NCBI RefSeq assembly: GCF_932526225.1
Contig: NC_064037.1
Span: forward strand, 3,248,996 to 3,312,995
Origin: Nematostella vectensis
Taxonomy: Eukaryota
Direction of reading: 5' to 3'
Length of the DNA: 64,000 bases
Under the pieces are notes generated by a model. It saw only the letters and a list, made by a program, of their open reading frames with translations, did not search any database and was not told where the DNA came from. Shown here piece by piece: positions 3,951 through 44,900 of this stretch; the first letter of the stretch is position 1; each line of letters starts with the position of its first letter. Both the position numbers and the translations under genes were made by a program.

Positions 3951-4251
3951 AAAGGAAAAAAGTGAAGTTTATTTAAGTCATTTCTGACCATACCGTTTAG
4001 CTTATTTAAAGGTCCCTATCTAAAATTGATAATAAACGAGTACAAAGGGTATTCTAGGCCAACTGGCAGACTGGTAATCATTCCCGACCTTCGGTTCTAA
4101 AGTGCTGTGCATCATGGTAACCCTGTGTGTAATGACAACCTCTGACTTTTTCGGATGCGGGCTCGTCCAAAAGCAATATGGCGGACGGGATTGAGCTTTT
4201 TCTGTAAAACCAGCAATTTCATATGTATTTTCCCCGCCTTTAGTCTAGAGA

Positions 4252-6554
<2,303 letters not shown>

Positions 6555-12320: not shown

Positions 12321-13131
12321 CTCGCATAAAAAACGGGGTTCTCGCCGCAAAAGACCATTGGGGGGCCCTAAGGGAAAGTCTATTTATTATCCAAAGGGGG
12401 AGGCGTGAGATTTTTTATAAAAGGGATAAAATTAGTTGACCCAGGAAGAACAAAATTTTCCATGCCCCCCCTTACGCTTCCCCCATATTTTTGGTGCCCC
12501 CCCTCCCGAAAATCGAAGAAAGAAGGAGCAAAGAAAGGAACGGCAATGACAATGTTAAAGGAACGCGATGAAGAGATTAGCTGCAAGCTGGACAGAGAGT
12601 GGAGGGGAAAAAATTGGCTGAAAACATTTATTCAGAAAAATTGAAGGCACTCAATTTCTTAAAGATGCGACTAACTCCAGGTTGCAACCTGATAATGGTT
12701 GATGCTATAGATGACGTAAAAGAAGGCTTTTCGATCTTCTCCTTGCAAGAAAAGCGCAGCATGAAAAAAGAGAAAAGAAAAAGAGCGAGGAAGACAGATA
12801 AAAAGATATGAACGAGGATTTTGATGATGGAGAATAGGCGCTTATAGCATTAAACTGTTAAAATGTTTTGTTTATATTTTAGATATTGAACATAAGCACT
12901 TTATAATATTATATAGCGGAAACCATAAAAAGATGTATTTAGGGTGTATACAGGTTTGCATTGCATAGATAAAATGTGGCTTAATACGTATCCTGGACCT
13001 GGATTGTGCATGCCAAATAACTGCCCCCAAACCGAGACAAGTCTGATTAGACACTCCGTCAAATCTTATAGAAGGAACAGCACCCAAAGGAATCAGTGAC
13101 CCCCCTTTTTAAATCCAAACACTTTGACACC

Positions 13132-13162
<31 letters not shown>

Positions 13163-14310: not shown

Positions 14311-14793
14311 AGGGGGAGTAGGGTCGGCAGAGCCTATAGTCACCATAGTCAGGAGCAGTGTTAATTTCAACCCATATTTCAGGCGTGTAAAGAGCATTTT
14401 TTAAAAAGGTGGAGAGGGTGCAGGGGAATGCTCCCCCGTAAAAAATGTCTTGTCAACGCCAGTCAAATGAAATTCATGAAAGTGATAAGAAGACGGATTA
14501 CATTTGTGTTCTTAATATGGAAGGTTCCAGAATTCTAGACGATCAGAATATCTGTTAAAAACATAAGACCCTCCCTCTAAACCCTGGATTAAAATTTGAG
14601 GTCCTCCATCCCCCCCCCTCCTAAAAAAGGAAACATGGTAGCCCTCCCCCTCCCCCCCGCTAAATATTGATTCTCCCTAAGTCTTCATTCGTGAAGCTCG
14701 TGAATAAACGGAATAAGATCAGGGATTTTTCTGACTTAAAAGCAACATGCAAGCAGTATCACCATTGCTGTCAAATGAGTCTGAGCACGAAAG

Positions 14794-14943
14794 CTTCCTG
14801 GCGCTGTTTGCATACCATGTTGGGAATTGCTTCAGACTGTTGGCTTCCTGGCGCTGTTTGCATACCATGTTGGGAATTGCTTTAGACTGTTGGCTTCCTG
14901 GCGCTGTTTGCATACCATGTTGGGAATTGCTTCAGACTGTTGG
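14794..14943. repeat. 50-bp tandem repeat x3
   Basis: Unit cttcctggcgctgtttgcataccatgttgggaattgcttcagactgttgg. Confidence 0.85.
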
Positions 14944-19521: not shown

Positions 19522-20928
19522 ATGTTTTCCTTTAAGAAAAAGGACAAGGACAAGGCCGGAGAAACCAAGGAAGAGAGAAGAGAAAGGAGACGAAGGGAGA
19601 AGGCTGAGAAAGAAAAGCTGAAGTTGGAGAAACGAGCGCAAGTGATAGCTGCTCAAGAACCGGCCATTTCTGATATCGTTGCAGGTAGTGGGAACGAGGA
19701 GGATAAAAAGGGCGCTGGGAGGTTTAGTTTCCGTAAACGTAAATACGATGTTGATCACGAGGTAGATAGCAACAACCCATCGCCTTCTTTGGAGCGGGCT
19801 GAGTTTTTAAATCGCGAGAGTCGATCGGGTAGTGACTCCGGGAGCATCGGGGCAACACGGTATAGGACAAGTGGGGACAGAGATTCGAGTTTGGACAAAC
19901 TACACGAGAACAACACACACAACGGTGGTTTTGCTGATCATAGGGACGGAGCAGAACCAGTTGCCAAGCCTCGAACACATAGAAAGAGCTCTAAGACATC
20001 AAGTCTTGATATTAAATTGAAAAACGGCAGCCGTGGGAGTGAGAGCGGAGAAGACGGTCAAGATACTATGAGTTATACCTCTGACAGATCTGACAGTGTT
20101 CAGGGTAGAAACAGGGATGATTCCTTCTCGAGGGGACGAAATTTCGAAGGAAGTACAGCTTTTGCTTTATCGGGAACACCCAAGAAGGATAGCATTAAAC
20201 GCGAAGCCCCAGCAAACCCACCTCCGAAACCTCCAAGAGTTGTTCAACCGGATGAGAGTGGAATGGTTGAGCTAAAGTTTATAAATGCCGGTGGATCACG
20301 AAGGACACCCAGACACGAACAGGAAATAAAAGTTTCTAGTTCAGTTAATTCTTACTCTGCACCTCCCCAAGATCTAAGTTTTATGGATACATCGATGGAA
20401 AACAAGCCAATTTACGATGAGAAGGTTTCGCGTGAGTATGCGGACGGTGTGTATTCGCAGCCCGAGGTCCTTGTATCACCAACTGAGAAATCGTTTGAAA
20501 GTCTCGGAGTGGATTTGCAACTACCAGAAGTTGTGCCAGCTAGTCCAGGGGCTCCTAGAATTATTCGAATTAAACGTAGATCCAGCGGTGACTTCGGCTT
20601 TGCTCTGCGAAGGGGTACAACTCCCGGGAGAGGGGACAAAACAGTGCATTTTGTTGAACCAGTTGGTCCAAACACGGTGAAGGGTATTTTACCAGGAGAT
20701 CGACTTATCGAGGTCAATGGCACGAATGTTGAGGACATAGACAGAGAGAAAATCATCGAAATGATCGCCATGTCAGGCGAGGAAGTTGTCATCAAGGTTT
20801 TGCCGGTTTCGGAGCTTTCAGAATTGAGCGTAAGAAGCGGTTTAGATGGTTCTTTTATCCAACTTGATGACTCGAATCTCAAAGCTGGCACGCTACAAAG
20901 AAGTGGCTCCAAGAGAATGAAGAAAAAG
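19522..20928 (+). CDS. MYO18A: MYO18 exon 1: start codon, KE-rich region, Ser-rich linker, PDZ domain (469 codons)
   Basis: ORF 19522..20952. Donor AAG|gtacgt at 20929. PDZ core [10 protein letters not shown]...[13 protein letters not shown]. Confidence 0.9.
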
Positions 20929-23900
20929 GTACGTGTTGAAATCCGCATGTAAACAAAACATTGTTTACGTCCTAGTTGCTGAATTTCTCGTGTGTTAAAC
21001 TCATTTGAACTTGATCGAAAAGTTAATGTCTAAGTACGAATCGATTTCTAGCAGTAAACCTCAAACCGATTATTTATTATTGTAATGAATTTCACAAGTT
21101 TGAAGTGAATTTGACCAGAATGTGTTACTTTACTTATCCAAACAGTGACCCTAAGAATACGGAATGTTATCATTTTGAGGTTTCAGAGTAACCGCAAAAA
21201 TGACTATCGGCTTTTATTGTTTATCGACTTGTATGATAATTTACTTTATGAAAGAATTTATCCTCATACAATGAGTTTCATGCTTTGATGGCTCTGGAAT
21301 GATTCCCTAGGGGTTCCGGAAAGTGTTATTGAAAGGTTTCTCGTGGAATTCAGGAGACAATTACACACACTCTGTTATCTTTATTGATCTTCTTTAGGTT
21401 ATTTAAGCTTTTCCTTGGGAATTTATAATAAATTCTAACTTAGACCAGCTTTGCCTTGTGAATATTACAACATCAAATACAATAAACACATCTTGATAAT
21501 TTATAAAACAATTCCCCATTTCCTTAATATCGTTTTATTGAATTATTATCACACAAAAAATACTGTAAAGCAAAATTATTTTGCTTGTGTTTTTTTTTCC
21601 AGAATTGATTGTCAAATTGATTCCTTAAAGAATGCAGACAAAGTCACCTCCAGATATGAGATTGCCCTTCCCATATTAATTCTAAAGCTAGAACAATTTC
21701 TGATTACATCCATGAGTATACACATTCAATTTTGAAATTCAAGTATAATTATATCATGGACTCATCCACTACATATTTCCTGACCAATATGATACAGTCA
21801 TCTTATTATAATGTCAGATACTGAAATAACTCCACATACATCACTCCCCAAGCTCTTGACCTCTGTATCAGGATTTTCAGAAAGATTAGATGTGATGCTA
21901 ACTTATCTCTGTACTGCTGTGGCAAATGAAGCTCACACTGATAAAATGTCTCCTTTTTACTTGATAAATTGTCTTTTTTTAATACCCTCTTATTTTAGAC
22001 ATCACAATCTTTACATACACTAAGAGATTTAGCTTGAAGAAAGACTTGTTTTGTCTGTTGCAGTTATCAAGTTATGGCTTTAATTCACACATAGATTATT
22101 TGTTTACTGCATAGCATGGCAAAGAATCCTGATTGTTTTTATTGCTGTTTTATGAATTAAAAAATACAACATTTAATCTTTTGTGTGGATCAGTCAATAT
22201 TATTTTGATCTTTACATCTAGTATATTGTATTTATTTTATATGAAAGTCAGCTTTCTGTATTTGGCCATATGAAGCCAATAAGGTTGCAGAGCAACCATG
22301 CAACTGTTTGAGACCCATTTTAAGTGCTGTTGTGGCTGGCTAAGGTTTCAAGTGTTATATATCATGATTATTGGCACACAGTGTTGAATTCATTTTAATG
22401 TCTCTAGAGACATATTGCCTTACAGAACTAACATCTAAAAGATATAACTTTGTATTTTCAGTCAAATCAGAGTCATACCCATAAAAATCATGGATGATTT
22501 TCAATTGGTTGCACATTTACCTTAATTTCCAGCCCTGCCTTATTATTATTGTTTATGATCCAGCTTGTTCACAGGATCAATATAAAGATAACCTTTCATT
22601 TGAAGTGTTTTGCCTTTTCATAGACTTGTTTTTATTATATCCTGGTACTCAACATGTAAAATAACCAAACTTTAATTATCCTGTCTGGATAGGAACACCA
22701 GATTGTATGCAAAATGAATGCTGTCTGGTGGGTTCAGACTTACTTTGTGGCTGAAATAGCTTTGCTCTTAAAGTGAGACATCTAATTGATAAAAGCGAGA
22801 AGTGGAATTTAGATGTTACAAGGAAATAGAATTTTAATTAAAAGCATTACTCTTGTAATAATGCTGCTTACTAAATCGACTGAAAAGAAAAGCATTGAAT
22901 TTTTTTTCAACCCAAAGAAGGACGCCCACCACCTGTTGCAATAGATCTCTAGTGACAACAAATACAAAGGATTTTCTTCTAACTGATAAAACTAATTTCT
23001 AATTAAATCAAGTTATTTTAGAAATTCAAGAAGTGTGTGGCTAAAAATATTGTAACTAAAAAAATTGACACCTGCAACCTTTTTTTTTGGTATACTTTGG
23101 AAGGTTCTTATTAAGGTGAAATGCAATGTTTCTGTAAACTCAGCAATTTATTTTCCTGGATTTCCATCAAGATTGTTAAAAAAGGCACCAGCAGCTTTTT
23201 ACTAATATTCGAAATACACAAAGGTAAATAAAAAGGTTGAACACTTTTTAGTAACAGGATTTTTGGCCGCTGCTTACTTAACCTTATTCAGACTGGGGGG
23301 GGGTCTGTTTAAGCCCCCCCTCCAGGAAAATTGCTTAACTTCTGAACCATAGCAGCTTACAGGCTAAGACTTGGTGACTTTTCCTAAAAATCTATCTGCA
23401 GACGTTTTGATGCCATTGACATGTTGAGGAGACACTCCTTGTTACAATGGCAACCGTTTTTTCACACATAAGTTTCCCAAAAACTGAAAAGTAGTGAATT
23501 TTTCATATTTAGGTCCTGTTTCTCAGATTTAATTGCCTGTTCTGACTTTATAAGTTTGTTAAGGTGACAAGTTTCACAACTGGGCTAGAATTTTTTACCT
23601 TAAATATTTTGGGGGAGGGGTGGGTAAATTTTGCTTTTCAAAGATTTACTAGATGACATTAAAAGGTAATATTATGTATTTATCATTACTAGGAGCAGTA
23701 ATACATGCATGCAAATCCTTTTTTCCAAAATAATGGCAGACCCAAGATGGCAGAAATTCTTACAAAAAATTGATTATAAACGCTTTTATGGCCTTTTTCC
23801 ATTGTAAAGCTGTAAAAAGGTTGATTCTGACATATCTGAACGATGAAAGATGATTTCAACCTGATATCTGATAATTTAAGTATTATTTAAAAGAATAGGT

Positions 23901-26900
23901 AGACATATTTATGACCTCATTGTGACATCATAGTTGATTCAACCACACCCAAAATAGGGCATGACAATTCTTTGCATGCTGGTGATCATTGTCTTTAAGT
24001 TTGATGGTCATAGCCTAAATGGTTCATGAAATACAGAAGGGAGGCTTTTTTAGCTCCCCTCCAGTCACAGACAGCTAAAAAAGCCCAGTCTGAATAGGGT
24101 TAAAAAACAATTTGTTCTACCTTTCTTTATTTTTATTTTCTTTTGATATTAGCTTTATCACTTACTTATACTGTAGTTGTCTTTTTTCCCTTTATTTACA
24201 GTAGAGCCAATTTGTTGATTTATATGTGACCAACCCAATTATTATTGCCCATGAGGTACATTAACTAGGCAACCCAACTGTGTAAAGGTCCACCTTTCAG
24301 GCGTTATCAAGCTAACACAAATATTGGATAGGCCCTTCAAGTAATAGTTAACCCCAAAGTCCTTGAACCCCATAACAGTTTTACTTTGATACACCAACGA
24401 GATAACAGCTTCTTAATCTAAGCATCATGACATTTGTGGCAAAGGTTAACCTAATGAACTGTCAAGCCAATCTATTGTGTTGTACTCGAACCAACAAGTT
24501 TCAGCATGTTAATGAAATAGGTTTATCTGAAGCACTGATGAAAATTCTGGTTTGCAAAAATCACTAAGTTTTGACTTTGAGAATTTGAGACTAGTCACAT
24601 TAACCAATATTCACAAGTAAACTTCAAAAAAATCAGTTTTGCTTTTGATCCTGCTATTATGATTCTTCAGTCTGTGCTAGAAAGCCAGGAGTATTTCAGT
24701 TTTTGTTGACTCTATAATTCTGAAGACTGTAGCTATGCAAGCAACGATTTTCATGACATATTGTGAAAAGGTACTGTACCAAATTCTAAAAATCACTGAG
24801 CACATGTATGCTACATTTATTGATAGCTCATGTTATTGTACCATTGTATTATTACAACAGTGGTTTGTTATTGTGACCTTTAAATATTTTTGAATGTGTT
24901 ATTTAAATGTGTTGGGTTTATGGGTTTAATTTTTGATAACCATGACTTGAGCAGTGATAAAAGCTTCCAAAACATCCTTTAAGGAAATAAAGCATATTAT
25001 GCCAGGTTTTTATTTTCAAATTTTAATTTTACATTGTTGTACTACTTTTGAAAAAGGTTGCCAGAAAAAAAAATGCCTTAAAACTTTTTTGTTTTCAAAA
25101 ATATAGTGTAGTGAATGTCATAAAGTAGCTCAATAATAGCATAGTTTAAGCACTCAGTTAATCAGTTCTACCTATTTACTGTGAACTGCTCCTTTGGGTT
25201 CCTTTTTCTTTCTTTCGAGCCGTTCTACATAGTTCTATTTAAAAAGAGTAGGAGTATGTGTGTGTAGGAATTCATGTTTATAGTATTAATCTTTTTATGT
25301 CAGGTCAAGCAATAGTGTAGACTCCATTAACCCAAAATAAATGAGCATGTCTATTTATTAATCAACTTATCTGTCTGTAAATCACCTAGCCTAGACAAAA
25401 AGCAAAATAAATAAAAAAGAAATATGTTAAGGTTCAGGTAAGCAGTTCTTAGTTAGGAAAAGAATGAAGTTTTTCCTGCAAACCAAAAGACAATAATGAA
25501 TAGGAACTGTTTCAGGAAAAATACTTTGTGTGATGTTTTTATAAATATTACACAAGAAAGCAGAAGTCAATAATTGTAATAGATTGTAGAGTGTAATTTG
25601 TCATTAAAAATACTTAAACATGACTTACTTTTTATCACATTTGAAATTATTCAAAATAGTTAGCGGTCCAAGTCCAAGTTTAGTGGATTATTCTGCAGTA
25701 CCCTTATTCATGTATGAATTATTCAACCACTGAGCAGTAGTAAACTAGTGTCACCTTTAACCAGGGGCTTTCCTGGACCATTTGTGTCACCTTTACCAAG
25801 GGCTTTCCTGGACCACTTGTGTCACCTTTACCAGGGACTTTCCTGGACTATTTGTGTTACCTTTGCCAAGGGCTTTTCCTGGACCACTTGTGTCACCTTT
25901 ACTAGGGACTTTCCTGGACCATTTGTGTCACCTTTACCAGGGGCTTTCCTGGACCATTTGTGTCACCTTTACCAGGGGCTTTTTTAGACCATTTGTGCCA
26001 CCTTTACCAGGGGCTTTCCTAGACCATTTGTGTTACCTTTGCCAGGGGCTTTCCTGGACCATTTGTGTCACCTTTACCAGGGACTTTCCTGGACCATTTG
26101 TGTCACCTTTACCAGGGGCTTTCCTGGACCATTTGTGTCACCTTTGCCAAGGGTTTTCCTGGACCATTTGTGTCACCTTTGCCAAGGACTTTCCTGGACC
26201 ATTTGTGTCACCTTTACCAGGGGCTTTCCTTGACCATTTGTGTCACCTTTGCCAAGGGCTTTCCTGGACCATTTGTGTCACCTTTGCCAAGGGCTTTCCT
26301 GGACCATTTTGAGCTCCAAGCCTGCCATTTAAATTTTTGGTCATTCTGGTGTATTTTGGTATATATATTTTTTTGCCTTTTAAAGAGATTAAAAAAAACT
26401 GGTTATGCCTTGGCTTGTGTATTGAAGGCAGTTAGGCCCGTGGTTTACAACCAACATTTTGTGTTGTGAGATATTTCTGTAAAAATCCCAATGCCCAAAT
26501 GTCTTTGTTTCATCTGTAGCCCAAGTCTGTGGAGGAGGTGGCATCAAACAAGGCGTGGCATGATGCAGAGAAGGTGTGGGTGGTCCACAAGGCAGGGTTC
26601 TCAGGTGGTAGGGTGCTGCGCTTAAAGCCGTCAGAGGGTGCTAATGAGGATGAGATGCCCATGTGCCAAGTCAAGCTGGACCATGGAGGGGAGCTCATTA
26701 CTATTGAGGAGGAGAACATTGAGAAGGTGGGTATAGAAAAAATATAGTTTTTTTAATCTGCTAGATTTTGCGGGCTTTGTGGATTTTGTTGGGGGAAAAA
26801 GCCTGCATACCCAAAATATGAAAGGGGAATACAGAAAAAAGAGCTGGCAAATGCAAGAGAACAGCCGGCTGCTATTTTGAACTCTGTGAGTGTTACCTTT

Positions 26901-29900
26901 TTAAGATTGGTACATAATGGGTGGGGGACAAGAGCGGAGGGGGGGTGTCTTTTCTTTATGACGAAAAAGATGTACACTTTATAAAAACTTGACTGTTCTA
27001 GGGACACTAGTGAGTGATGAAATTGGTTTAATCTCATGCTAAATGCAATGCCACAAATCCTAAAAATCCTACTGATCTTGTGGGTTATCAACCACAATAA
27101 CCATAATCATCAATTTGTTATAGAGATTGCTTTGTTTATATTGTTTTGCATACTGTATGACAATCTTTTAAAATGATTTTGTTTATACATCTTTATTTGA
27201 AGGAAGGTGGTTTTTAGATTTTTATGTATGTGTAAGTGTGCACTTCAACTAAGGCTCAGTGCAATGAAAATTTGAGCTGTGCAAGTTAAATACCAAAACT
27301 GTCTGCACATGTGGCTAGTATAAATCATGAGCTTTGAGCCCTAGGTTGACATCGTTTAACCCTCCTGATGTGACGTGATACCTTGTATTTGCAGGCCAAC
27401 CCTCCTCAGTATGATAGAGCAGAGGACCTTGCCACCCTGCGCTACCTTAACGAGTCCAGCTGCCTTCACACCCTGCGTCAACGATATGGAAGTAACCTCA
27501 TCCACACTTACGCCGGACCCAACATGATTGTCATCAACCCCCAGCAGCAGCTTGCCATCTACACTGATAAGGTAAAGTAGCAACTTGCCATCTACACTGA
27601 TAAGGTAAAGTAGCAACTTGCCATCTACACTGATAAGGTAAAGTTGCAACTTGCCATCTACACTGATAAGGTAAAGTAGCAAACTTGCCATCTTCACTGA
27701 TAAGGTAAAGTAGCAAACTTGCCACCTACACTGATAAGGTAAAGTAGCAAACTTGCCATCAACCCTGATAAGGTAAAGTAGCAACTTGCCATCTACACTG
27801 ATAAGGTAAAGTAGCAAAATTGCCATCTACACTGATAAGGTAAAGTAGCAAACTTGCCATCTACACTAATAAGGTAAAGTAGCAAACTTGCCATCTACAC
27901 TGATAAGGTAAAGTAGCAACTTGCCATCTACACTGATATGGTGAAGTAGCAAACTTGCTATCTACACTTATAAGGTAAAGTAGCAACTTGCCATCTACAC
28001 TGATAATGTAAAGAAGCAAACTGAGCAGCTAGAAGCAATTCCAAGAAGTGCAGCAACTTATTCTATGCAAGATCAAATAAACTAGTTCCCTGGCTATCTT
28101 CTTCCCCAGGAACCAACATCTTACAATAATACCTCGAGTTTTAATAAGTAATAGTTTACCCCACAATGTGTTATTCTCCAAGCATCATGATCCCATTATT
28201 GCTAAGGCCTAATATAAACAGCGTTCTCTTCATGTGCTGTTCCAAGTTAAAGTATATGCAAATGAAGATAAAACAACCAACTTTGTTCATTTGCATGTAT
28301 TTGAATTTGGAAGAGTACGTGAAAAGAATGGTATCTAAACTATGCCTAAGTGTTGTGAAGCTTCCTTAAAACTGTGTTAAGCTCCCTTACAGGTTATCCA
28401 GATGCCCTGATGTCATAATGACATCATATTGTGTTGCTATGGCAACACAATATATCATTTTGTTCCTCTTTGTCAGATAATGATTCTTTGAAAATTTGGT
28501 CATAATTGCTCCAATGGTTCAAAAGTTATGGATGGGGGGGGGGGGGGGGGGGGGAGCGCAAGAGCCCCCCAGTCTGAATAGGGTTAAAACTAACTGTGTT
28601 AAGCTCCCTTACAGGTTATCCAGATGTTCCGTGGATGTAAGCAGGAGGATATGCCACCACACATCTTTGCCACAGCCCAGACGGCCTACCGCAACATGCT
28701 CGCAACCAGGATAGACCAGTCTGTGGTGCTGATGGGGTCTAGTGGATCTGGAAAGACGACTTGCGCAAAGCATATCCTCCACTACCTCTCATCGATAGCT
28801 GGCTCTTCTCACTCCCCTGTCACAGGTAACACTGCTATAATTTGGCACATGTCCCCGTTTATTCCTGCTTATAAATATATACCCTTGTATGCCACACCTC
28901 TCTCTGAGAGTCATGTTGACTTGAATCAATGATATACCACTCCTATCTCCTCCTTCAATGCCCACATTTTCTTATAAACAATTTCTGCTTTTGTCTTTCC
29001 AGATCAAAATTTCGAAGGGATCTTTGCACTGTTAGAGTCATTTGGAAATGTGCAGACCATTTTGAACAGGAATGCCACCAGATTTACACTTCTTGTGAGT
29101 CTAGACTTTGATTCAGCAGGAGGACTGACTTGCGGATCCCTGCAGGTAAGCTTGCTTGTCATGCCTGTGGAAAAAAGAATATGTGGAATTGTTGTGGTAG
29201 TGCTAGGAGAATGGTATTGACAGGTGGTGTGCCACACACCTGGTAACATAAGAGGTATAGCGGTGCTAGGTGTAAATAACTAGGACATGAGTTGGAGGGC
29301 TGGCTTGCACGACCTTTCAGATTAGTCATAGTGCAAAAGGAAATGTGATATGTAAATAACAAATAACATCCTTAAATAAAGGTGCAAGTTATGGTGTATA
29401 CAGATAGAGGCCTAGTACTTATGGACCCTTGGCTTATCTACTTGTTTTTCAGACATTTTTGTTGGAGAAATCACGGGTTGTTCGGCAAAAGGAAGGCGAA
29501 GGGACTTTCAACATATTCTATTATCTGTTGTCTGGCAGCGACCCAAAGCTAAGGTAACTAAATGCACAATAATGTACAGTAAGTACATTTGTGAGCCTTC
29601 TGCATGCCTTGTTGGAATCAGTAAATTTAGGATTTTACCCTTTTTTAAATTTGCATAGTCAGTTTTAGCTTGACATTTTGTGTGGGAAAAGTCTGGTAAT
29701 GGCCTTTAAAATTCTCTTTTTCCCCTCGAATTCTCTAAAACATAGATGCCAACCCCCGAAGTTCCAAATCAGATTTTTTGGAGAGTGGAGTTTTATAGCT
29801 TTTTTTATAGCTTCTATATTTGCAGAAACGCGACAACCAGTTTAAAGATTACCACGCATCTTTAAATTTTTCTGAAAATGCATCAATAGCTACGCATTGT

Positions 29901-32900: not shown

Positions 32901-35900
32901 ATCCATCTTCCCGGGCGCTAATGACAGCAGCTTCTTGGCCAGACTCTACGTACACCACTGCAGCGAAAGTGAGTACTTAAGAAACGGCTCTTTGAATCAG
33001 AGTGAGTACCCAAGAAACGGCACTTTGAATCAGAGTGAGTACCCAAGAAACGGCACTTTGAATCAGAGTTTTACTCAATTGTTTCCAACTTCCCCCCTTC
33101 ACCTCCCCCATACCTCCCAAAAGAGGCCAGATACTTTCATCCTCACAAGGAACCCTCAAAGAAATGACATCCATTGCAAAAATATCTAAATTGTTGTCGA
33201 GCGCCGGTAAAGTAAAGCATAGAAGTGAGCGCGGTGGAAGACTAAGGCTTATCGCAGCAATTGAGAAAATATGTTGTCTGCACATGGCTTTCGTTGGGAA
33301 TCTCGTAATAATACCCCCACACTTCTAAATCAAGATTTTTCTTATCCCGAGTTTAATTTGAAGGGCTGGACACTGAAATTTTAACGGAAACGTTCGAGAA
33401 AGGCCTCTCAACCCTCGGGGATGCTGTTGTGTAATCGAGAGGAGTCCTGGGTAAACCAGGGTATATAACCCTCGGGGTTACTGTTGTGTATTTGTAGAGG
33501 AATCCTGGGTGAAGCAGGGTCCGAAAAAAGACACGTTCTACGTAAATCATTGCCAAGGGACGCTTCCTGTGTTGTATAACGCGCAAGGCTGGCTCAAACT
33601 CGCGAGGGAGAACGCCACCACGAAACAGGCGCGAGGCATCCTCGCGGACTCCACCAAGTGAGTTTCTTTACATTTAGCTTAAGCACCGAAAAATGTAACA
33701 GAAGAGCTGATATATATATATGTTTTGAAAATACCAGGTGGCTTCGTCGGCTTGCTAACTTTTAATGTAAAAAATTGAAAAAAAAAAAAGATGTTTGACG
33801 CTTGCTAACTTCACAAATCAGGGATAAAACCGCTATATGGTCATTTTTTTCTACGATGTTACTAAGTAGAAACCTTGTCGATTAGTTATAGCCTTTCTGG
33901 TAATTTTTGAGCATTTTCTTGTTGGCCACGGTAGCCCGCGGTTTAACCGCCAACTTTTTTGAAAATGTTTTGTTTTCTTATCTTCGTAGGAACTCGGTGA
34001 ACAGTTTATTCTCTCAGCGCAACACCGCTGACAGTATCTCGAGGTCCCGCAGTTTCAAACGCGCCACCATGAGCCCTCCGACCGCCATTAAGAAAAACTC
34101 GCAGTGTCTGCAACTCATCTATCAAGTGGTGAGTTGTACACAACACAACCACGTACTAGCAACACGATCATGTACGGGGGACGACATCGCTCGATACAAC
34201 CACGCACTAGCAACACGATCATGTACGGGGGACCACATCGCTCGACACAACCACGTACTAGCAACACGATCATGTACGGGGGACCACATCGCTCGACACA
34301 ACCACGTACTAGCAACACGATCATGTACGGGGGACCACATCGCTCGACACAACCACGTACTAGCAACACGATCATGTACGGGGGACCACATCGCTCGACA
34401 CAACCACGTACTAGCAACACGATCATGTGCTGGGGACCACATCGCTCGACACAACCACGCACTAGCAGCACGATCATGTACGGGGGACCACATCGCTCGA
34501 CACAACCACGTACTAGCAACACGATCATGTACGGGGGACCACATCGCTCGACACAACCACGCACTAGCAACACGATCATGTACGGGGGACCACATCGCTC
34601 GACACAACCACGCACTAGCAACACGATCATGTACGGGGGACCACATCGCTCGACACAACCACGCACTAGCAACACGATCATGTACGGGGGACCACATCGC
34701 TCGACACAACCATGTACTAGCAACACGATCATGTACGGGGGACCACATCGCTCGACACAACCACGTACTAGCAACACGATCATGTACGGGGGACCACATC
34801 GCTCGACACAACCACGTACTAGCAACACGATCATGTACGGGTGACCACATCGCTCGACACAACCACGTACTAGCAACACGATCATGTACGGGTGACCACA
34901 TCGCTCGACACAACCACGTACTAGCAACACGATCATGTACGGGGGACGACATCGCTCGACACAACCACGTACTAGCTACACGATCATGTACGGGGGACCA
35001 CATCGCTCGACATAACCACGTACTAGCAACACGGTCATGTACGGGGGACCACATCGCTAGACACAACCACGTACTAGCAACACGATCATGTACGGGGGAC
35101 GACATCGCTCGACACAACCACGTACTAGCAACACGATCATGTACGGGGGACCACATCGCTCGACACAACCACGTACTAGCAACACGATCATGTACGGGTG
35201 ACCACATCGCTCGACAATCACGTACACACACAATCCCGTACACGCAACCCTATCACGCACACAGCCAACACGCAACAGCTATCTAAAGATTTGCCCCTTT
35301 CCCATAATCTATAAACATAAAGCTAATTAATCAAGTAGTGATTTGCACGCAACACCTTAAAAAGTGGGCTTAACCAATATGCGCAACACAACCACGTGCG
35401 CACAACCGAAACGCAACAGCCAACCCTCCCATGGTATTTGCTATTGGTGAACGGCAACACCACATTATATGGACAGGCAGTTTGGGGAACTCATTCTAAC
35501 GGCAACCATATGGCGTTTTTTAAACAATCCATCTAAAACCAAGCAAAACAGGGGCTCTCTCGCCCATGAAGTTGTTGTCTATTTGTTTTTGGTCACTATA
35601 TGCTTTTACTGTAATAGCTAAGGATCGAACAAACAAATAAATTGCAAATTGGCAAAGCAATTTTAGGAAATATAGAGAGAGAACTAAGAGATGTGACCAA
35701 GCTCGATTACGATACACGGCCATACGTATGAACACGACCATCAGCCGAACATACACTACACATGCGCAAATGAACCGAACATGCACTACACATGAGCAAA
35801 TGAACCGGACATACACCACACATGCGAAAATGAACCGAACATGCACCACACATGCGCAAATAAACCGAACATGCACCGCACATGCGCAAATGAACCGAAC

Positions 35901-38900
35901 ATGCACCACACATGCGCAAATGAACCGAACATGCACTACACATGCGCAAATGAACCGAACATACACTACACATGCGCAAATGAACCGAACATGCACTACA
36001 CATGAGCAAATGAACCGAACATACACTACACATGCGAAAATGAACCGAACATGCACTACACATGCGCAAATGAACCGAACATACACTACACATGCGCAAA
36101 TGAACCGAACATGCACTACACATGAGCAAATGAACCGAACATACACTACACATGCGAAAATGAACCGAACATGCACCACACATGCGCAAATGAACCGAAC
36201 ATACACTACACATGCGCAAATGAACCGAACATGCACTACACATGAGCAAATGAACCGAACATGCACCACACATGAGCAAATGAACCGAACATACACCACA
36301 CATGCGCAAATGAACCGAACATACACTACACATGAGCAAATGAACCGAACATGCACTACACATGAGCAAATGAACCGAACATACACTACACATGAGCAAA
36401 TGAACCGAACATGCGCTACACATGAGCAAATGAACCGGACATACACCACACATGCGAAAATGAACCGAACATGCACTACACATGAGCAAATGAACCGAAC
36501 ATGCACCGCACATGCGCAAATGAACCGAACATGCACCACACATGCGCAAATGAACCGAACATACACTACACATGCGCAAATGAACCGAACATGCACCACA
36601 CATGCGCAAATGAACCGAACATACACTACACATGCGCAAATGAACCGAACATACACTACACATGCGCAAATGAACCGAACGTGCACCACACATGCAAAAA
36701 TGAACCGAACGTGCACTACACATGCGAAAATAAACCGAACATGCACCACACATGAGCAAATGAACCGAACATACACTACACATGAGCAAATGAACCGAAC
36801 ATGCACTACACATGAGCAAATGAACCGAACATGCACTACACATGAGCAAATGAACCGAACATACACCACACATGCGCAAATGAACCGAACATGCACCACA
36901 CATGAGCAAATGAACCGAACATTACACATGAGCAAATGAACCGAACATGCACTACACATGTGCAAATGAACCGAACATACACTACACATGCGCAAATGAA
37001 CCGAACGTGCACCACACATGCAAAAATGAACCGAACGTGCACTACACATGCGAAAATGAACCGAACATGCACCACACATGAGCAAATGAACCGAACATAC
37101 ACTACACATGAGCAAATGAACCGAACATGCACTACACATGAGCAAATGAACCGAACATGCACTACACATGAGCAAATGAACCGAACATACACCACACATG
37201 CGCAAATGAACCGAACATGCACCACACATGAGCAAATGAACCGAACATTACACATGAGCAAATGAACCGAACATGCACTACACATGAGCAAATGAACCGA
37301 ACATGCACTACACATGCGCAAATGAACCGAACATACACTACACATGCGCAAATGAACCGAACGTGCACCACACATGCAAAAATGAACCGAATGTGCACTA
37401 CACATGCGAAAATGAACCGAACACACATCACACATGAGCAAATGAACCGAACATACACTACACATGAGCAAATGAACCGAACATGCACTACACATGAGCA
37501 AATGAACCGAACATGCACTACACATGAGCAAATGAACCGAACATACACCACACATGCGCAAATGAACCGAACATGCACCACACATGAGCAAATGAACCGA
37601 ACATTACACATGAGCAAATGAACCGAACATGCACTACACATGAGCAAATGAACCGAACATGCACTACACATGAGCAAATGAACCGACCATACACCACACA
37701 TGAGCAAATGAACCGAACATACACTACACATGCGCAAATGAACCGAACATGCACTAAACATGCGAAAATGAACCGAACATGCACTAAACATGCGAAAATG
37801 AACCGAACATGCACCACACATGCGCAAATGAACCGAACATGCACTACACATGCGCAAATGAACCGAACATGCACTAAACATGTGAAAATGAACCGAACAT
37901 GCACCACACATGCGCAAACGAACCGAACATACACTACACATGCGCAAATGAACCGAACATACACTACACATGTGCAAATGAACCGAACATGCACAACACA
38001 TGCGCAAATGAACCGAACATGCACTACACATGCGCAAATGAACCGAACATGCACTACACATGCGCAAATGAACCGAACATGCACTACACATAAGCAAATG
38101 AACCGAACATACACTACACATGCGCAAATGAACCAAACATACACCACACATGCAAAAATGAACCGAACATGCACTACACATCCGCAAATGAAGCGAACAT
38201 GCATTACACATGCGCAAATGAACCGAACATACACTACACATGCGAAAATGAACCGTCCGTGCACTACACATGCGAGAATTAACAGAACGTGCACCACACA
38301 TGCGCAAATGAACCGAACATGCACCACACATGCGAAAATGAACCGAACATGCACCACACATGCGCAAATGAACCGAACATACACCACACATGCGCAAATG
38401 AACCGAACATACACTACACATGCGCAAATGAACTGAACATGCACTAAACATGCGAAAATGAACCGAACATGCACCACACTTGCGCAAATGAACCGAACAT
38501 GCACTACACATGCGCAAATGAACCGAACATGCACTAAACATGTAAAAATGAACCGAACATGCACCACACATGCGCAAATGAACCGAACATACACTACACA
38601 TGCGCAAATAAACCGAACATACACTACACATGTGCAAATGAACCGAACATGCACTACACATGCGCAAATGAACCGAACATGCACTACACATGCGCAAATA
38701 AACCGAACATGCACTACACATGCGCAAATGAACCGAACATGCACTACACATGCGCAAATGAACCGAACATACACTACACATGCGCAAATGAACCCAACAT
38801 GCACTACACATGGGCAAATGAACCGAACGTACACCACACATTCGCAAATGAACCGAACATACACTACACATGCGCAAATGAACCGAACATACACTACACA

Positions 38901-41900
38901 TGGGCAAATGAACCGAACGTACACTACACATGCGCAAATGAACCGAACATACACTACACATGCGAAAATGAACTGAACATACACTACACATGCGAAAATG
39001 AACCGAACGTACACTACACATGCGCAAATGAACCAAACATACACTACACATGCGAAAATGAACTGAACATACACTACACATGCGCAAATGAACCGAACGT
39101 ACACTACACATGGGAAAATGAACCAAACATGCACTACACCTGCGCAAATGAACCGAACATACACTACACATGCGAAAATAAAACGACGTGCACCACACAT
39201 GCGAAAATGAAACGACGTGCACCACACATGAGCAAATGAACCGAACATGCACTAAACATGCGAAAATGAGCCGAACATGCACTAAACATGCGAAAATGAA
39301 CCGAACGTGCACCACACATGCAAAAATGAACCGAACGTGCACTACACATGCGAAAATGAACCGAACATACACTACACATGCGCAAATGAACCGAACATCC
39401 ACTACACATGCGAAAATGAACCGAACGTGCACCACACATGCAAAAATGAACCGAACATACACCACACATGAGCAAATGAACCGAACATGCACTACACATG
39501 CGAAAATGAACCGAACATGCACTACACATGCGCAAATGAACCGAACATACACCACACATGCGCAAATGAACCGAACATGCACTACACATACGCAAATGAA
39601 CCGAACATGCATTACACATGCGCAAATGAACCGAACATACACTACACATGCGAAAATGAACCGTGCGTGCACTACACATGCGAGAATTAACCGAACGTGC
39701 ACCACACATGCGCAAATGAACCGAACATGCACTACACATGCGAAAAATGAATCTTTTGTTTGCTATTTTAGGACACTCTCCTCGACGCTATCCGTAAAAC
39801 CAAAGTGAACTTTGTGCGCACAATACTGCCTGTATCAACCGCTGGCCAGACTGACATCACGGATCCCATCACTAAGGCCAAGGTCTCCAAGGAGATGGCT
39901 ACCCTTGACGTGCCCATGGTGCGGCAACAACTGCGGTCAGCGGAGATGCTCGATGCTGTCAGGATACACCGTCAAGGTAAGTATTGTGTGGGGGTGGGGT
40001 GGGGGGAGGGGGGGAGGAATGACACAGGTGTGCTTCTTATGGTGTATGTTGCGAGGCAGGGCCTGATTGATGGTAAGCTGGGGGCTTGATACCCTTGGTA
40101 CCAGAGCCTCCAGACTTCTCGCACCCAGTGGCGCTCTCGCATTTTGGCTAAGCGTCACTGGACGAGAGAAGTATGGAGGCTGTGGTACCCAGGGTAGGGA
40201 ATTGATTGGTAGATGGAGGTTGATTTGTAGGTATAACCTGTGTCATGGTTGGATGAAAATGTCAAAAATATAAAAAAAACCTGGGTGATAGATATGAATC
40301 CTTCTCCTTTGTTCTAGTAGAACAACTGTAAGGTTTTATTTCGATGTCTGAAACCCCTAACTGTTTAAAACGCATGATATGACATGAAAATACTATAAAG
40401 CTAATTGCGTTTATGCTGTTATAAATGACTAAAAATCACGCTTATGTTTGACAATGGGAGATGGATTGTAGCGCGGCGCTAAGAACTGACACCCAGTCCT
40501 TCCCGGTCTTAAAACAACTCGTAGCAAAGACAAGGTGAATGCAAGGTCACGCTAGTGCGAGCTAGCATTTCAGCACCTGAGCACCAACATAGATATTACA
40601 AACATGGCATGACCATCTAGCCAAGGCTTGTCGAGCATGGGGGCTCCTCGGTATGACTGCGATCAGCTATCATGTGCAATCGAACCTCGCAAGCCGTAGA
40701 CGCAGCGTCAAAGGCTTTCCAGGTACCCTCGCCCTGCCGTACTTATAAACTTCCTAGAATTATGTCTAAGAGCAATGACCATGAATAGCGTTCTAAGAAG
40801 ACTAAATAGCAGATCTCACATCAACGTAGAGATGTTTCTATTCTCAAGTGTTTGTAAACATAATAGTATTTCTCCAATTAACAAGTGGTTCTACGTGGCC
40901 GGTATTACTGTTACCAAGGTGTTATCAAAGGGTCATGGGAATGTATTTGTCTCACGCAAACTGTACGATTTGAGTTAGACATTCGTCTTTTGTAGATCCT
41001 ACCAAACCATTCTAGCTTTGAGTTAGTTTAGTTTTTATGCATAAAATCAAAGCAAACTAAAACAACGATTGTAATAATCTCTTGGAACAATAGGTATTGT
41101 TCGAAGTAGTAAATGTCGAAGTAGTTTGTTAAGCACTTTAAGATTGGTACTTATCTCTGATTGCCGTCTTTATTGCATGGTGAAACTACTGTATAGTACC
41201 TTAGAGACCGACCAAGCTACAAATATTTCCATTTATTTATCCATAAAAAACACCAAAGATTCCCAAATATCTGTCCGGCCCAAGAAAAAGTTTTCCGCGC
41301 GAAATTTTGTTATGCAAATACAACGTGCGCAAACAACGTGTGTTGTCTTATAATAAAGTTGTGTATCAATTTATATATAGAATTTACTTAGCTGACGATA
41401 TGTGAAAAATTGAAAGTGGCGTTTTGTTTATTATATTTACTGGTACGTAACTAAATGTCATCTTTTGCAGGTGTTATTTTAACTATTAGACTGTTTAGAA
41501 TAGTCCGTACCCCTAAAAGTACCCGTTACTCTCAAATAAAGTAAAACCGCTAACTTTTATGACAAGAAACACTACCTACATCTAGGAGCCTTGTAGGTAA
41601 ACACTCCTTTGTCTCAACACGAAGCACCGCTGATTCCATCGTCTGCAGTCGCAGTCCATTGACTTCAACAGGCTTCATTATTCAGGCGTAAAACTTTGTA
41701 GCCGAGCGCATCAGACTTGTTTGTTTACCTTGCGTATAGCACTGACTGTTTACTCTGGCCTGGGCCCAGAAGTGGTGTGATTGAATCGCCGAGCAAGACG
41801 CAGTGTCCGTTGAAGCCTCGCTACTGTTTCCTTTTTTTGTTGGGGATTTCTACAGTGCGTATCTCAACCCACAGGTGAACCTGGACATGTAGGGAATTTG

Positions 41901-44900
41901 GATTGTGCCTTCAGCTTAAAGTTTTATTCGCAATCTTCGACTCATCGTGGTACAAGCCGACAACAGAGGGCAAAGTTTCCAGAACTAGAGTTCGCTGCAC
42001 GTGGAAACAGTCAGTGGTTATTTGAAGGCTTATGAATGGGGCATGGGTGTACGTAGCGGTGATCTGACAACTACTGAAGATATGAGTTGTAACAATCAGG
42101 GCCTTTTTGGTTGGCGCCATGAAACCCGTGTTTTACTTATTGTGCAAGCGACACAGCTCAAAACATTCCAAGTACCAGGTTCGTGTTCGCGTTAGGGAAG
42201 TTTGAAGTCACAGCAATGGGAAAAAATTATACCGAGCTCAAATTTACTTTGTTTAGGAACTTTTCCTTGCGCGATTAAGAAATACTTACCTAATTGAATT
42301 TGATTAAATTCAACACAATGTCACTCAAAATTATTAAAACGGTTCATTTAAATGTGTCAACCTCTTTTATTCGGAACTGCTAAAGGAATTTTAATGCCAA
42401 GACAAACACTGAAGTCAAAAACAATTTCTTGTGTGTTTTTATCCTACTAAACAGAGGTGTGTAATTCTCGAGAAATACTTGTTATCCTGCAGGTCTTGTT
42501 TTCTTTTCTTAGATTTACGGTCGAGTTGGGTATTTATGGAAGCTAAGTAGGTTCGCAATATTAACCATTTGAGGTATAGATATATCATCAAATGCATGAA
42601 ATTCAAGGAGTATTTGCTAAAGTTCAAGGTCAATTTTAAAGTAATATTTCTACTGAACGCCCGCAAATTGCCACTTGGTTGGTTTTAAAAGGTTTTTAAT
42701 ATTCATTGCTGAACAATAACTGATATTGTACTGTGCTTGACAAGTGCACCAAGAGTTAATGAGGACAACGAGAACAAAAAACTCTCTCTTTGAACAGTTA
42801 ATATCCTTGGTAATATTCATTCTTTATATATATACGAATATATACGAATAAACGAATGTTAATTGATCCATAGCATGACTCGAATGACTCGGTGCTTTTC
42901 GTGTGCGTGACATACCGCCATTCTCACCGATAACTAGACGGTCAGATAACGCGCGCGGTGATGGAATTGTGTATTTTAAGTTATCTTTACATTCGCGCAT
43001 TTTAAATGTATACAAAAAAGCCTAGAAATTCCAACACTCCTGTGGTGAGTAATCATGTGGCGGACTCCCTCTCAGGGTTGGGTTTGCCCTGTCTTATTAT
43101 CTCAGTATGTAAGCTCAGTAAGGATGCAGCAAGGGACGGGAATATTTTTATGGTCTTTTTGGAGAGGGGTTTGTATAGGAAATTGCTTTATGGGGGGGGG
43201 GGGGGAGGATTTGATGAAAAATATCCTTTCCTAATATGTCTTCCTCCCACAGGCTTTCCGGAGCACATGCCGTTTGGGGAGTTTCGGCGAAGGTTCGACG
43301 TGTTGGCGCCTGTGCAGTACAGGACCAGCGCAGGACCCGTGCTGGACGAGAAAAAGGTATCTCCTAGAAAACCTTCAAACTTGATACAGTCGAGAAAAAG
43401 GTATTTCCTAGAAATCCTTCCAAACATTTTACGGTCGTGTTATCCTTTATACAGGAACCAGGTCTGGATAAACTCTAATTTTGCTTAGTTAAACGAAGTA
43501 ATTTTATCGAAACTCAGTATTAACCGTTCAGTGGTAAATACTGCGATTTAGCCATTTATGTAATGTGCTATAAGTCTCTTAGCATTTAGTGGTATTTAAT
43601 TTGCTATTAGACCATTAGCATTCAGTGGTATTATATTCATGTTATGTGTCTCCAGGGCGTGGAGCTGTTGCTGAGCCATCTGGAGTTGGATCAGAGGAGC
43701 TACCGACTTGGACTTAGTCAGGTATTTTAGACGGCTTTTCTTCTGAGAAGATTTTGTTGCTGTGTTTTTTAGCGCTCTTTTGGTATGACTGTTAGCGAAA
43801 AGTAAACAAATAAGGATCCCGTTAAACCGAATCTATGAAGAAAATAGCAATGGTACAATTAGCAAGAAGAGAGAGTTGATTTGGAAAAGGAATCAACTGT
43901 TCAGCAGTCTCTATGTATTCATGAGTTACTCCCTTCGTTCAACCTATGTCAAGCGGCTGTTTATTATTTTCTTGGATTTACTCCTAAGTTTGTATATTTA
44001 TGGCGTGGATCTTGTTTTGGGCTTGTTCTCTGGCTCTAATCATGCGACTTTTATTATTGTCTTTGAATTAATTGATACGTTTGATTCCTGCATTGCGTAG
44101 ATCTTCTTCCGCGCGGGTTCGCTGGCACAGCTCGAGGATGCTCGCGACCAGAAGACGACAGGTACCATCGTCGAGTTGCAAGCTTACTGCCGCGGCTTCT
44201 TGGCCAGAAAACGACTCAAGAAGTTACAGGTAATGTGCAGCTTCCCCCCCATCCTCGATAGTCTCCTACGCAGACGCTCTGCCACGCGAAGTTTTGGGAG
44301 TCTGTGAACTGTACGATTATTCGGAGACGTCGGTGGCAACGCGAACAGAGCGAGGGAGATGGGCTGGGGGAGGGGGATGTCGGGGTAGAAATTCTTCCCT
44401 GTTTCAATCACAAATGTTGTTTATAGTTTGCTAAGAAAGCTAAAGCGCTATTATGTTCTGATTAAAATCTTTTCTCTTTTGTTTCCAGGTTCAGAACAAG
44501 GCCATGATATGTATCCAGAGAAATATTCGTAAGTTCATGGCTGTCAGGAGCTGGTCCTGGTGGAAGCTGTACACAAAGGTTAGTCACACAACCCTTCCCT
44601 CGGACTGATCTCGCTAGGGCCGACCCCAACCCGAGAGCATCTCGTACTGATATCGTTATCGCTGACCCTATCCCGAAAACATCTCGTACAATCTCGTTAT
44701 CGCCGACCCTATCCCGAAAAAAACTCGTATAGATCTCGTTATCGCCGACTCCATCCCGAAAACATCTCGTACTGATCTCGTTATCGCCGACCCCACCCTG
44801 AAAACATTTCGTACAGATCTCGTTATGGCCGACCCCATCCCGAAAACGTCTCGTACAGCCCTCGTTATCGCCGACCCCATCCCGAAAACATCTCGAGGCA

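Follow-up and report, generated by a model that had tools for sequence, protein, structure and literature searches.

The window analysed here, i.e., the whole stretch of 64,000 nt, carries on its forward strand a gene of which five exons were modelled, open segments being joined by hand at GT/AG boundaries (Table 1). The predicted product combines a K/E-rich N-terminus, a PDZ domain, a weak SH3_Myosin-XVIIIa match and a Myosin_head domain (E = 2.5e-44, Pfam), and the domain order of this gene model is that of class-XVIII myosins. The spliced product is colinear with the myosin motor, and the junction between exons 3 and 4 (…LAIYTDK/…) is gapless against myosin-II motors, e.g., PDB 8syf. Orthologous exons, present as single-exon ORFs on metagenome-borne eukaryotic contigs, have the same first residue, preceded by CAG (Q/), and the closest orthologous locus, L001, reads ttcttcag/GTGATTCAAATG, with a normal single acceptor and an intron that is not alignable to the present one. 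Because the orthologous exons and L001 start at the same place, the position of this acceptor must be regarded as old and conserved. On these comparative grounds, the functional acceptor of the fourth coding exon is the AG at 28613-28614, located in the downstream copy of the repeat described below. A preliminary description of this DNA had named the exon as MYO18 exon 4, in agreement with its rank in our model and with the conservation of its acceptor in orthologues. A new intron, or an introner-type insertion, was ruled out, as the intron position is common to distant orthologues. A protein search with exons 4-5, aimed at the same species, reached 87% identity at best, all matches being single-exon fragments, and neither an exact-ORF search nor a scan of metagenome contigs for an exact 29-nt match returned anything; in these collections, no protein, contig or transcript of the species itself was recovered.

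Table 1. Positions, in the window, of the exons, repeats and transposon-derived segments discussed in the text.
Feature	Position	Strand	Basis and remarks
Exon 1	19522-20928	+	GT/AG assembly
Full-length related MITE in intron 1, TTAA-CCTTATTCAGACTGG…CCAGTCTGAATAGGG-TTAA	23278-24103	+	Repeat and terminus search, alignment
Exon 2	26520-26726	+	GT/AG assembly
Exon 3 of the myosin-XVIII-like gene	27395-27571	+	Splice model, translation; donor AAG/GTAAAG at 27571/27572
34-nt minisatellite, 14.1 copies	27551-28022	+	TRF; first unit across the exon 3/intron 3 boundary
Imperfect hairpin of ~149 nt, 65-nt arms, 75% complementary	28202-28350		Repeat search; just upstream of the left copy
TTAA, presumed MITE target site, 26-23 nt upstream of the left-copy AG	28366-28369	+	Sequence; TTAA+AACT matches the right junction
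Left copy of the 35-nt repeat, orphan 3' splice site	28370-28404	+	AG at 28391-28392, then 12 exon-like nt, GTTATCCAGATG
CCC, non-canonical left junction	28405-28407	+	Filler, or retained 5'-terminal CCC of the element
Remnant of the piggyBac-type MITE, conserved 3' module only	28408-28583	+	Alignment to full copy and relatives, terminus search
TTAA of the right, canonical element junction	28584-28587	+	Sequence, terminus search
Extra AACT, missing from the left copy	28588-28591	+	Sequence
Right copy of the 35-nt repeat, functional 3' splice site	28592-28626	+	AG at 28613-28614, then initial 12 nt of exon 4
Exon 4, …GSSGSGKT…SPVT, P-loop region of the myosin motor	28615-28825	+	Splice model, translation, motor alignment
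Exon 5	29003-29094	+	GT/AG assembly

The acceptor of exon 4 is doubled. The 35-mer AACTGTGTTAAGCTCCCTTACAGGTTATCCAGATG, composed of the last 23 nt of the intron, AG included, and of the initial 12 nt of the exon, occurs exactly twice in the window (28370-28404 and 28592-28626, 222 nt from start to start). No third occurrence was found anywhere in the window, even with up to three mismatches allowed, and 100 dinucleotide-preserving shuffles yielded 0 occurrences. When a 4-nt indel (AACT) is permitted, the repeat grows leftward through TTAA (28366-28369 and 28584-28587) to a repeated flank of 39 nt, the left flank reading CC-TTAA-AACTGTG… and the right one GGG-TTAA-AACT-AACTGTG…. Between the two 35-mers lie 187 nt (28405-28591), namely CCC, about 176 nt of MITE sequence, TTAA and AACT. 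The flank duplication beside a MITE fragment reported in the preliminary description is thus a real and exact repeat, but its length is 35 nt and not 37, and its second copy stands at 28592-28626 instead of 28588-28624. The 183-bp spacer given there counts up to and including TTAA and reaches 187 nt with AACT, and the upstream acceptor copy, which does exist, has its AG (28391-28392) 222 nt rather than 220 bp before the real one (28613-28614). The G run, described as 23 nt long and closing the element, comprises 21 nt (28534-28554) and is set back from the element end by about 30 nt. As had been noted, the downstream copy alone runs on into the exon.

Both acceptors are identical from -23 to +12, and any score limited to -20..+3 is equal for the two. 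Translation confirmed that use of the upstream AG at 28391-28392 would give …AIYTDKVIQMP-stop, as previously proposed, with 222 nt added and a stop after five codons. At the real site, a yTnAy motif (CTAAC, branch A at -22) is created by the extra AACT together with the next AAC, and no yTnAy motif was found between -70 and -10 upstream of the decoy AG; the difference is suggestive but not decisive, since a strict yTnAy is missing from intron 1 as well and the consensus is thus not obligatory. The putative exon extension that follows the decoy begins with two stable hairpins and contains the G21 run, and G runs tend to mark intronic sequence. Since CTAAC is present at the real site only, and since the hairpins and the G21 run follow the decoy, the downstream acceptor is expected to be dominant, and the upstream copy would act as a weaker, NMD-targeted competitor; we infer this splicing behaviour of the acceptor pair from sequence context. 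The usual rule for 3' sites is that the first AG after the branch point is preferred (PMC9984181), a rule which is not decisive for a pair 222 nt apart because each site may own its branch point. Recursive re-splicing from the AAG/GTTATC regenerated after decoy use was also considered, by inspection, and is not relied upon, this being a poor donor (+3 T, +5 T). The doubled segment ttacAG/GTtatc, with its two equivalent serial signals, recalls the creation of introns or of competing splice sites when a segment with AG/GT is duplicated (Hellsten et al., 2011; PMC3265369; PMC4974935). By contrast with that system, no intron was gained here, the position is ancient and the copy lies within an existing intron; moreover, the two copies are separated by a transposon remnant.

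The sequence between the two acceptors belongs to a family which could be characterised from a full copy located 4.5 kb upstream (23278-24103), taken as reference for the family ends and for the 4-bp TSD, and to the 3' ~190 nt of which the insert aligns. This full copy, 826 bp long including TSDs, has TTAA on both sides (23278-23281 and 24100-24103), TIRs of about 15 bp (CCTTATTCAGACTGG / CCAGTCTGAATAGGG) that show the terminal motif CC[C/T]T, and no coding capacity, its longest open frame having at most 48 codons. A TTAA TSD, TIRs of ~12-19 bp and a CC[C/T]T terminal motif are the hallmarks of piggyBac (PMC2872659), and these sequence features fit a piggyBac-type, i.e., TTAA-specific, MITE family; no transposase gene was found in the window. 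The full copy resembles the coral CMITEs (Wang et al., 2010; PMC2872659) in its TTAA TSDs, CC[C/T]T motif and ~15-bp TIRs, in being non-coding and shorter than 1 kb, and in an internal or subterminal module conserved across diverged relatives, the likeness being one of hallmarks only, as the MITEs of the window are not CMITE sequences (PMC2872659). Differently from CMITEs, the remnant next to exon 4 is single-ended, its left junction offering a 35-nt copy of the right flank in place of TTAA.

At its start, the remnant forms two perfect hairpins (28408-28426 and 28426-28453; DNA fold z = -3.1). Further on come G21 (28534-28554), a spacer and C6, and the terminal sequence is CAGTCTGAATAGGG. Its 3' TIR is identical to that of the full copy (18/18), the last 18 nt before AACT (CAGTCTGAATAGGGTTAA) being found exactly at 24086-24103 and, inverted with one mismatch, at 23278-23295. 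Three termini of the family are present in the window, and the exact 18-nt terminus was retrieved from 106 metagenome contigs, in elements whose bodies are ~70-75% identical to the full copy. In six related contig elements, the palindrome TGA(T/C)GTCAT(T/A)ATGAC(G/A)TCA stands 176-196 nt from the end, where it is internal, and opens a conserved module which also carries the G-run/spacer/C-run just inside the TIR. These six relatives extend upstream of the palindrome and the insert begins 3 nt before it; the insert is therefore a 5'-truncated copy. The truncated MITE of the preliminary description is thus upheld, with TTAA specificity and a terminus identical to that of the full copy.

The presence of the G-run/spacer/C-run architecture in relatives on independent contigs also bears on the reliability of the assembly. 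A homopolymer of 21 nt is error-prone on most sequencing platforms, and a chimeric join or a mis-resolved heterozygous insertion near the poly-G tract could in principle have produced two 35-mers from a single true one. The conservation of this architecture in the family led us to reject the poly-G tract as an assembly ghost or as the cause of the duplication. Such an artefact is in our view very unlikely, given also that the junction GATG/CCCTGATG has no long k-mer common to either allele type, which assemblers would hardly invent, and that an intact gene runs colinearly through the two flanks; doubt may be cast, at most, on how many G the run exactly counts.

The two ends of the remnant differ in kind. 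The right junction, GGG/TTAA/AACT, is canonical, and the 8 nt which follow the GGG of the element, TTAAAACT, are the same as the 8 nt across the start of the left copy, an agreement with a chance of ~4e-5 for an imported fragment. Because of this agreement, the element end can be considered native to the TTAA located 26-23 nt upstream of the acceptor AG. This speaks against the capture of a foreign MITE piece or its retroposition with a long, LINE-type target-site duplication, as the flank matches the local site (p ~4e-5) and the fragment was thus not imported. In favour of such a process, endonuclease/TPRT-type insertions typically have variable TSDs exceeding 10 nt. Nevertheless, no poly-A or other 3' tail was seen on either strand, and the fragment corresponds to no tRNA and to no known RNA family (Rfam). 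A SINE-like or retroposed fragment was consequently rejected, and we regard capture as extremely improbable.

At the left junction (…CCAGATG/CCC/TGATGTCAT…), by contrast, there is neither TTAA nor TIR; it is no product of the transposase and is therefore read as a repair junction. Relatives show A/T-rich sequence before the palindrome, and never CCC. The behaviour of the family as a whole was evaluated at 112 termini with enough flank, i.e., the three of the window and, for the rest, those of metagenome contigs. Among the 112, 1 terminus, the remnant's own, has 14 nt or more of its right flank repeated in the 3 kb upstream, so that the flank repeat does not belong to the transposition reaction as such and reflects a one-off event. 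A long TSD as a property of the family was accordingly rejected, the family TSD being 4 bp. The earlier remark that the repeated flank is much longer than a TTAA TSD holds with this value. The copy itself is perfect (35/35 nt), its template stands directly after the right TTAA, and the left copy likewise stands directly after a TTAA.

From a mechanistic point of view, we lean, with some reservation, towards the insertion of a MITE at an intronic TTAA followed by a break-repair or template-switch event that copied 35 nt of the right flank. A piggyBac-type MITE would have integrated, in an ancient intron, at the TTAA found 26-23 nt before the acceptor, and a DNA break would later have struck the integrated element in or at its 5' part. 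Such a break may have come from a one-ended cut by transposase, or from the stalling of a fork at the pair of perfect hairpins that starts 3 nt from the junction. The end of the left flank could then have primed at the TTAA and right flank of the sister chromatid, of an element-free homologue or of the same molecule, and 35 nt would have been copied before end-joining to the remnant, with loss of the element except for its last ~176 nt. The outcome, a 39-nt pseudo-TSD, would be that of a templated insertion during abortive gap repair. The preliminary description had suggested a repair or duplication event tied to the element, and this is still the best explanation of a canonical and native right junction, a non-canonical left one and a flank copy at a single terminus out of 112. 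We infer the repair mechanism and the order of events, as well as the earlier residence of a complete MITE at the TTAA, from these junctions. Two details do not follow from break repair: no simple one-step version of it yields the extra AACT of the right copy, and the CCC of the left junction is unexplained by it.

Repair of transposon-induced breaks by alternative end joining often leaves insertions templated from flanking sequence, some of them longer than 20 nt (Chan, Yu, and McVey, 2010; PMC2895639). The present locus resembles these Pol-theta T-nucleotides in that the insertion sits in a repair junction at one end of a transposon and has its template in the adjoining DNA, in that priming by short microhomology, here TTAA, is possible, and in that the short repeat AACT AACT is of the type produced by iterative synthesis (PMC2895639). 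It differs from them in its length, 35 nt being near the long end of the reported insertions, and in the partial retention of the element, which was not excised (PMC2895639).

The CCC triplet may be read otherwise. In an aberrant, non-concerted integration (one-ended or with a wide stagger) of an element that was already internally deleted, the right end would attack TTAA, the defective left end, reduced to CCC, would join 35 nt downstream, and gap filling would give a 39-nt target duplication (TTAA + 35 nt). This scenario predicts the exact order observed, [TTAA+35]-CCC…GGG-[TTAA+35], and the canonical right junction, with CCC as the 5' terminal triplet of a piggyBac-type element (CC[C/T]T motif, PMC2872659). 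We nevertheless consider it rather unlikely. An element without its 5' TIR is a poor substrate for transposase, 446 kb of related sequence contained no other copy starting with TTAA-CCCTGATG, and no other terminus among the 112 has a long flank repeat. CCC is expected by chance at ~1/64, which makes it no strong evidence, and the extra AACT is still unaccounted for.

The surroundings of the repeat should also be considered. Intron 3 (1043 nt) is almost wholly repeat-derived: the intronic copies of the 34-nt minisatellite make up 43% of it, the ~149-nt hairpin 14%, and the decoy with the MITE remnant 22%. The hairpin is probably an older hairpin-type repeat, for which Rfam gave only sub-threshold, miRNA-precursor-like matches. 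The minisatellite contains 12 intact AAG/GTAAAG donors, with an in-frame TAG after each. In the gene as a whole, seven minisatellites (the 34-nt array and six others) have their start in the interval from -30 to +20 nt around donors, and the end of one array lies 20 nt ahead of an acceptor. All are tandem repeats of the plain kind, and their units are unrelated.

Such a landscape suggests another order of events, in which the acceptor junction was first doubled in tandem (unit of at least 39 nt), the MITE then entered the downstream TTAA canonically, and the left TTAA and the element's 5' part were afterwards lost by deletion. Tandem duplications across junctions are indeed frequent here, as seen in the 14 repetitions of the exon 3 donor unit, in a 91-nt unit present twice at 47789-47966 and in a 33-nt unit present three times at 32968-33069, and the canonical right junction is in line with such a history. 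However, three independent events would be needed, yet both 35-mers are 100% identical, and the deletion would have to take TTAA and nearly the whole 5' half of the element while stopping precisely on the boundary of the unit (GATG). Neither CCC nor AACT would be accounted for, and TRF detected no residual tandem structure at the repeat. This order of events is therefore, to our judgement, unlikely. A simple tandem duplication was rejected, TRF on 27300-28700 reporting the donor array only and the 35-mers being dispersed, with a foreign spacer. Other short-range exact repeats of the window (14793-14943, 46039-46267 and 55547-55748) are plain tandem arrays, not duplications flanking transposable elements.

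A theme of duplication at splice junctions had been proposed for this DNA. It is real, as the donor of intron 3 is repeated 14 times and other donors are also repeated, but it offers no explanation of the acceptor pair, because the donor arrays are plain minisatellites and stem from a different process than the dispersed, MITE-linked repeat. What donor arrays and acceptor pair have in common is only a tolerance of junction duplicates. The donor side of intron 3, with a 34-nt unit across the boundary and 12 identical donors, has a parallel in the 37-bp VNTR of intron 7 (IVS7) of human F7, whose first unit lies across the exon 7/intron boundary and whose pseudo-sites are functional but silent, the most upstream donor being chosen (Borensztajn et al., 2006; PMC1557585). 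The F7 case concerns 5' sites multiplied by tandem repetition, as opposed to the transposon-linked pair of 3' sites described here (PMC1557585). That the acceptor doubling should be one case of a gene- or genome-wide local duplication at splice junctions, due to a break/duplication process or to selection, seems to us quite improbable. The process could be one of breaks and duplications close to junctions, coupled for example to transcription or splicing, and selection could act on redundant or regulatory sites, the orphan acceptor serving as an NMD-coupled regulator of myosin-XVIII output.

Taken together, these observations make the locus, in all likelihood, a commonplace scar from faulty repair of DNA, which left a spare and probably weak acceptor. 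The processes involved, namely insertion of a TTAA transposon, error-prone break repair with templated insertion and creation of a cryptic splice site, are known ones, and neither a new class of element nor a new mechanism is added by this work. The presence of an identical upstream acceptor entails a risk for annotation, as gene predictors could pick it and report a truncated protein. The locus offers a clean natural example of a DNA transposon which, beside a splice site, was reshaped by host repair: the gene retains an intact acceptor, gains a consensus branch-point motif, and holds an exact spare acceptor 222 nt upstream, in an intron which also holds 12 identical donors. If the spare site is used, the pair would constitute a natural experiment on identical 3' sites that differ only in their branch point and downstream context.

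The 34-nt minisatellite of intron 3, whose first unit lies across the boundary with exon 3 of the myosin-XVIII-like gene, contains 12 intact AAG/GTAAAG donor copies, and an in-frame TAG comes after every one of them. The same architecture is found in the human F7 IVS7 VNTR (PMC1557585). Six further tandem arrays of the same gene begin between -30 and +20 nt relative to a donor site. The start of the 33-nt array at 32968 coincides exactly with A/GTGAGTAC, and the array keeps the reading frame open, each unit amounting to 11 aa. The 91-nt unit at 47789 contains about 30 nt of exon together with the donor. The units of these six arrays have no kinship with each other. By rough arithmetic, such array starts would be extremely unlikely under uniform placement (~1e-7). 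They could be explained by short ancestral introns, or by a donor-proximal duplication process.

Feature coordinates in the window
Feature	Position	Unit or size	Remarks
Second gene	4249-6551		+ strand; upstream of the myosin-XVIII-like gene; translations read by eye
Minisatellite	27551-28022	34-nt unit, 14.1 copies	Unit 1 straddles the exon 3/intron 3 boundary
Imperfect hairpin	28202-28350	~149 nt, 65-nt arms	Arms 75% complementary; directly upstream of the orphan acceptor
Donor-proximal array	32968-33069	33-nt unit	
Donor-proximal array	34143-35216	51-nt unit	
Minisatellite	35745-39751	30-nt unit, 134 copies (4 kb)	
Donor-proximal array	44599-44895		
Donor-proximal array	47789-47966	91-nt unit	
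Direct repeat	48478-48546 and 49147-49215	69 nt	94% identity; 669 nt apart
Donor-proximal array	50267-50657		
Donor-proximal array	52875-53542		

Tandem repetition also accounts for nearly all of one 5.6-kb intron, which is made up of the 51-nt array and the 30-nt minisatellite, the latter stopping 20 nt short of the acceptor for the exon that starts at 39772. In the tail region, the 69-nt direct repeat covers coiled-coil coding sequence (…KKKSSRLAQ(K/E)…) and may represent a duplicated exon fragment or a pseudo-exon. Outside this gene, the upstream exons were identified, from a reading of their translations by eye, as putatively encoding a BCS1-like AAA ATPase (including …LLEDIDAAF…).

The hairpin next to the orphan acceptor, the upstream copy of the repeated acceptor segment before exon 4, is probably an old hairpin repeat. 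All of its Rfam matches fell below threshold; they were to miRNA-precursor families of plants and animals, and the best of them scored 38.9 bits, for a cut-off of 100 bits. Regarding the piggyBac-type MITE whose remnant follows this acceptor, its exact 18-nt 3' terminus was plentiful in a few host-associated-looking metagenome assemblies (contigs L003-L108, many from Ga0126336), and three contigs (L045, L054 and L076) carried complete elements of ~520-590 bp. These occurrences hint that the window derives from a relative of the eukaryote sampled in those assemblies. Other long homopolymers of G or C, 14-19 nt in length, were found at 850-865, 7910-7926, 13130-13148 and 43192-43205, and these may mark additional members of repeat families that carry G runs, as this MITE does.
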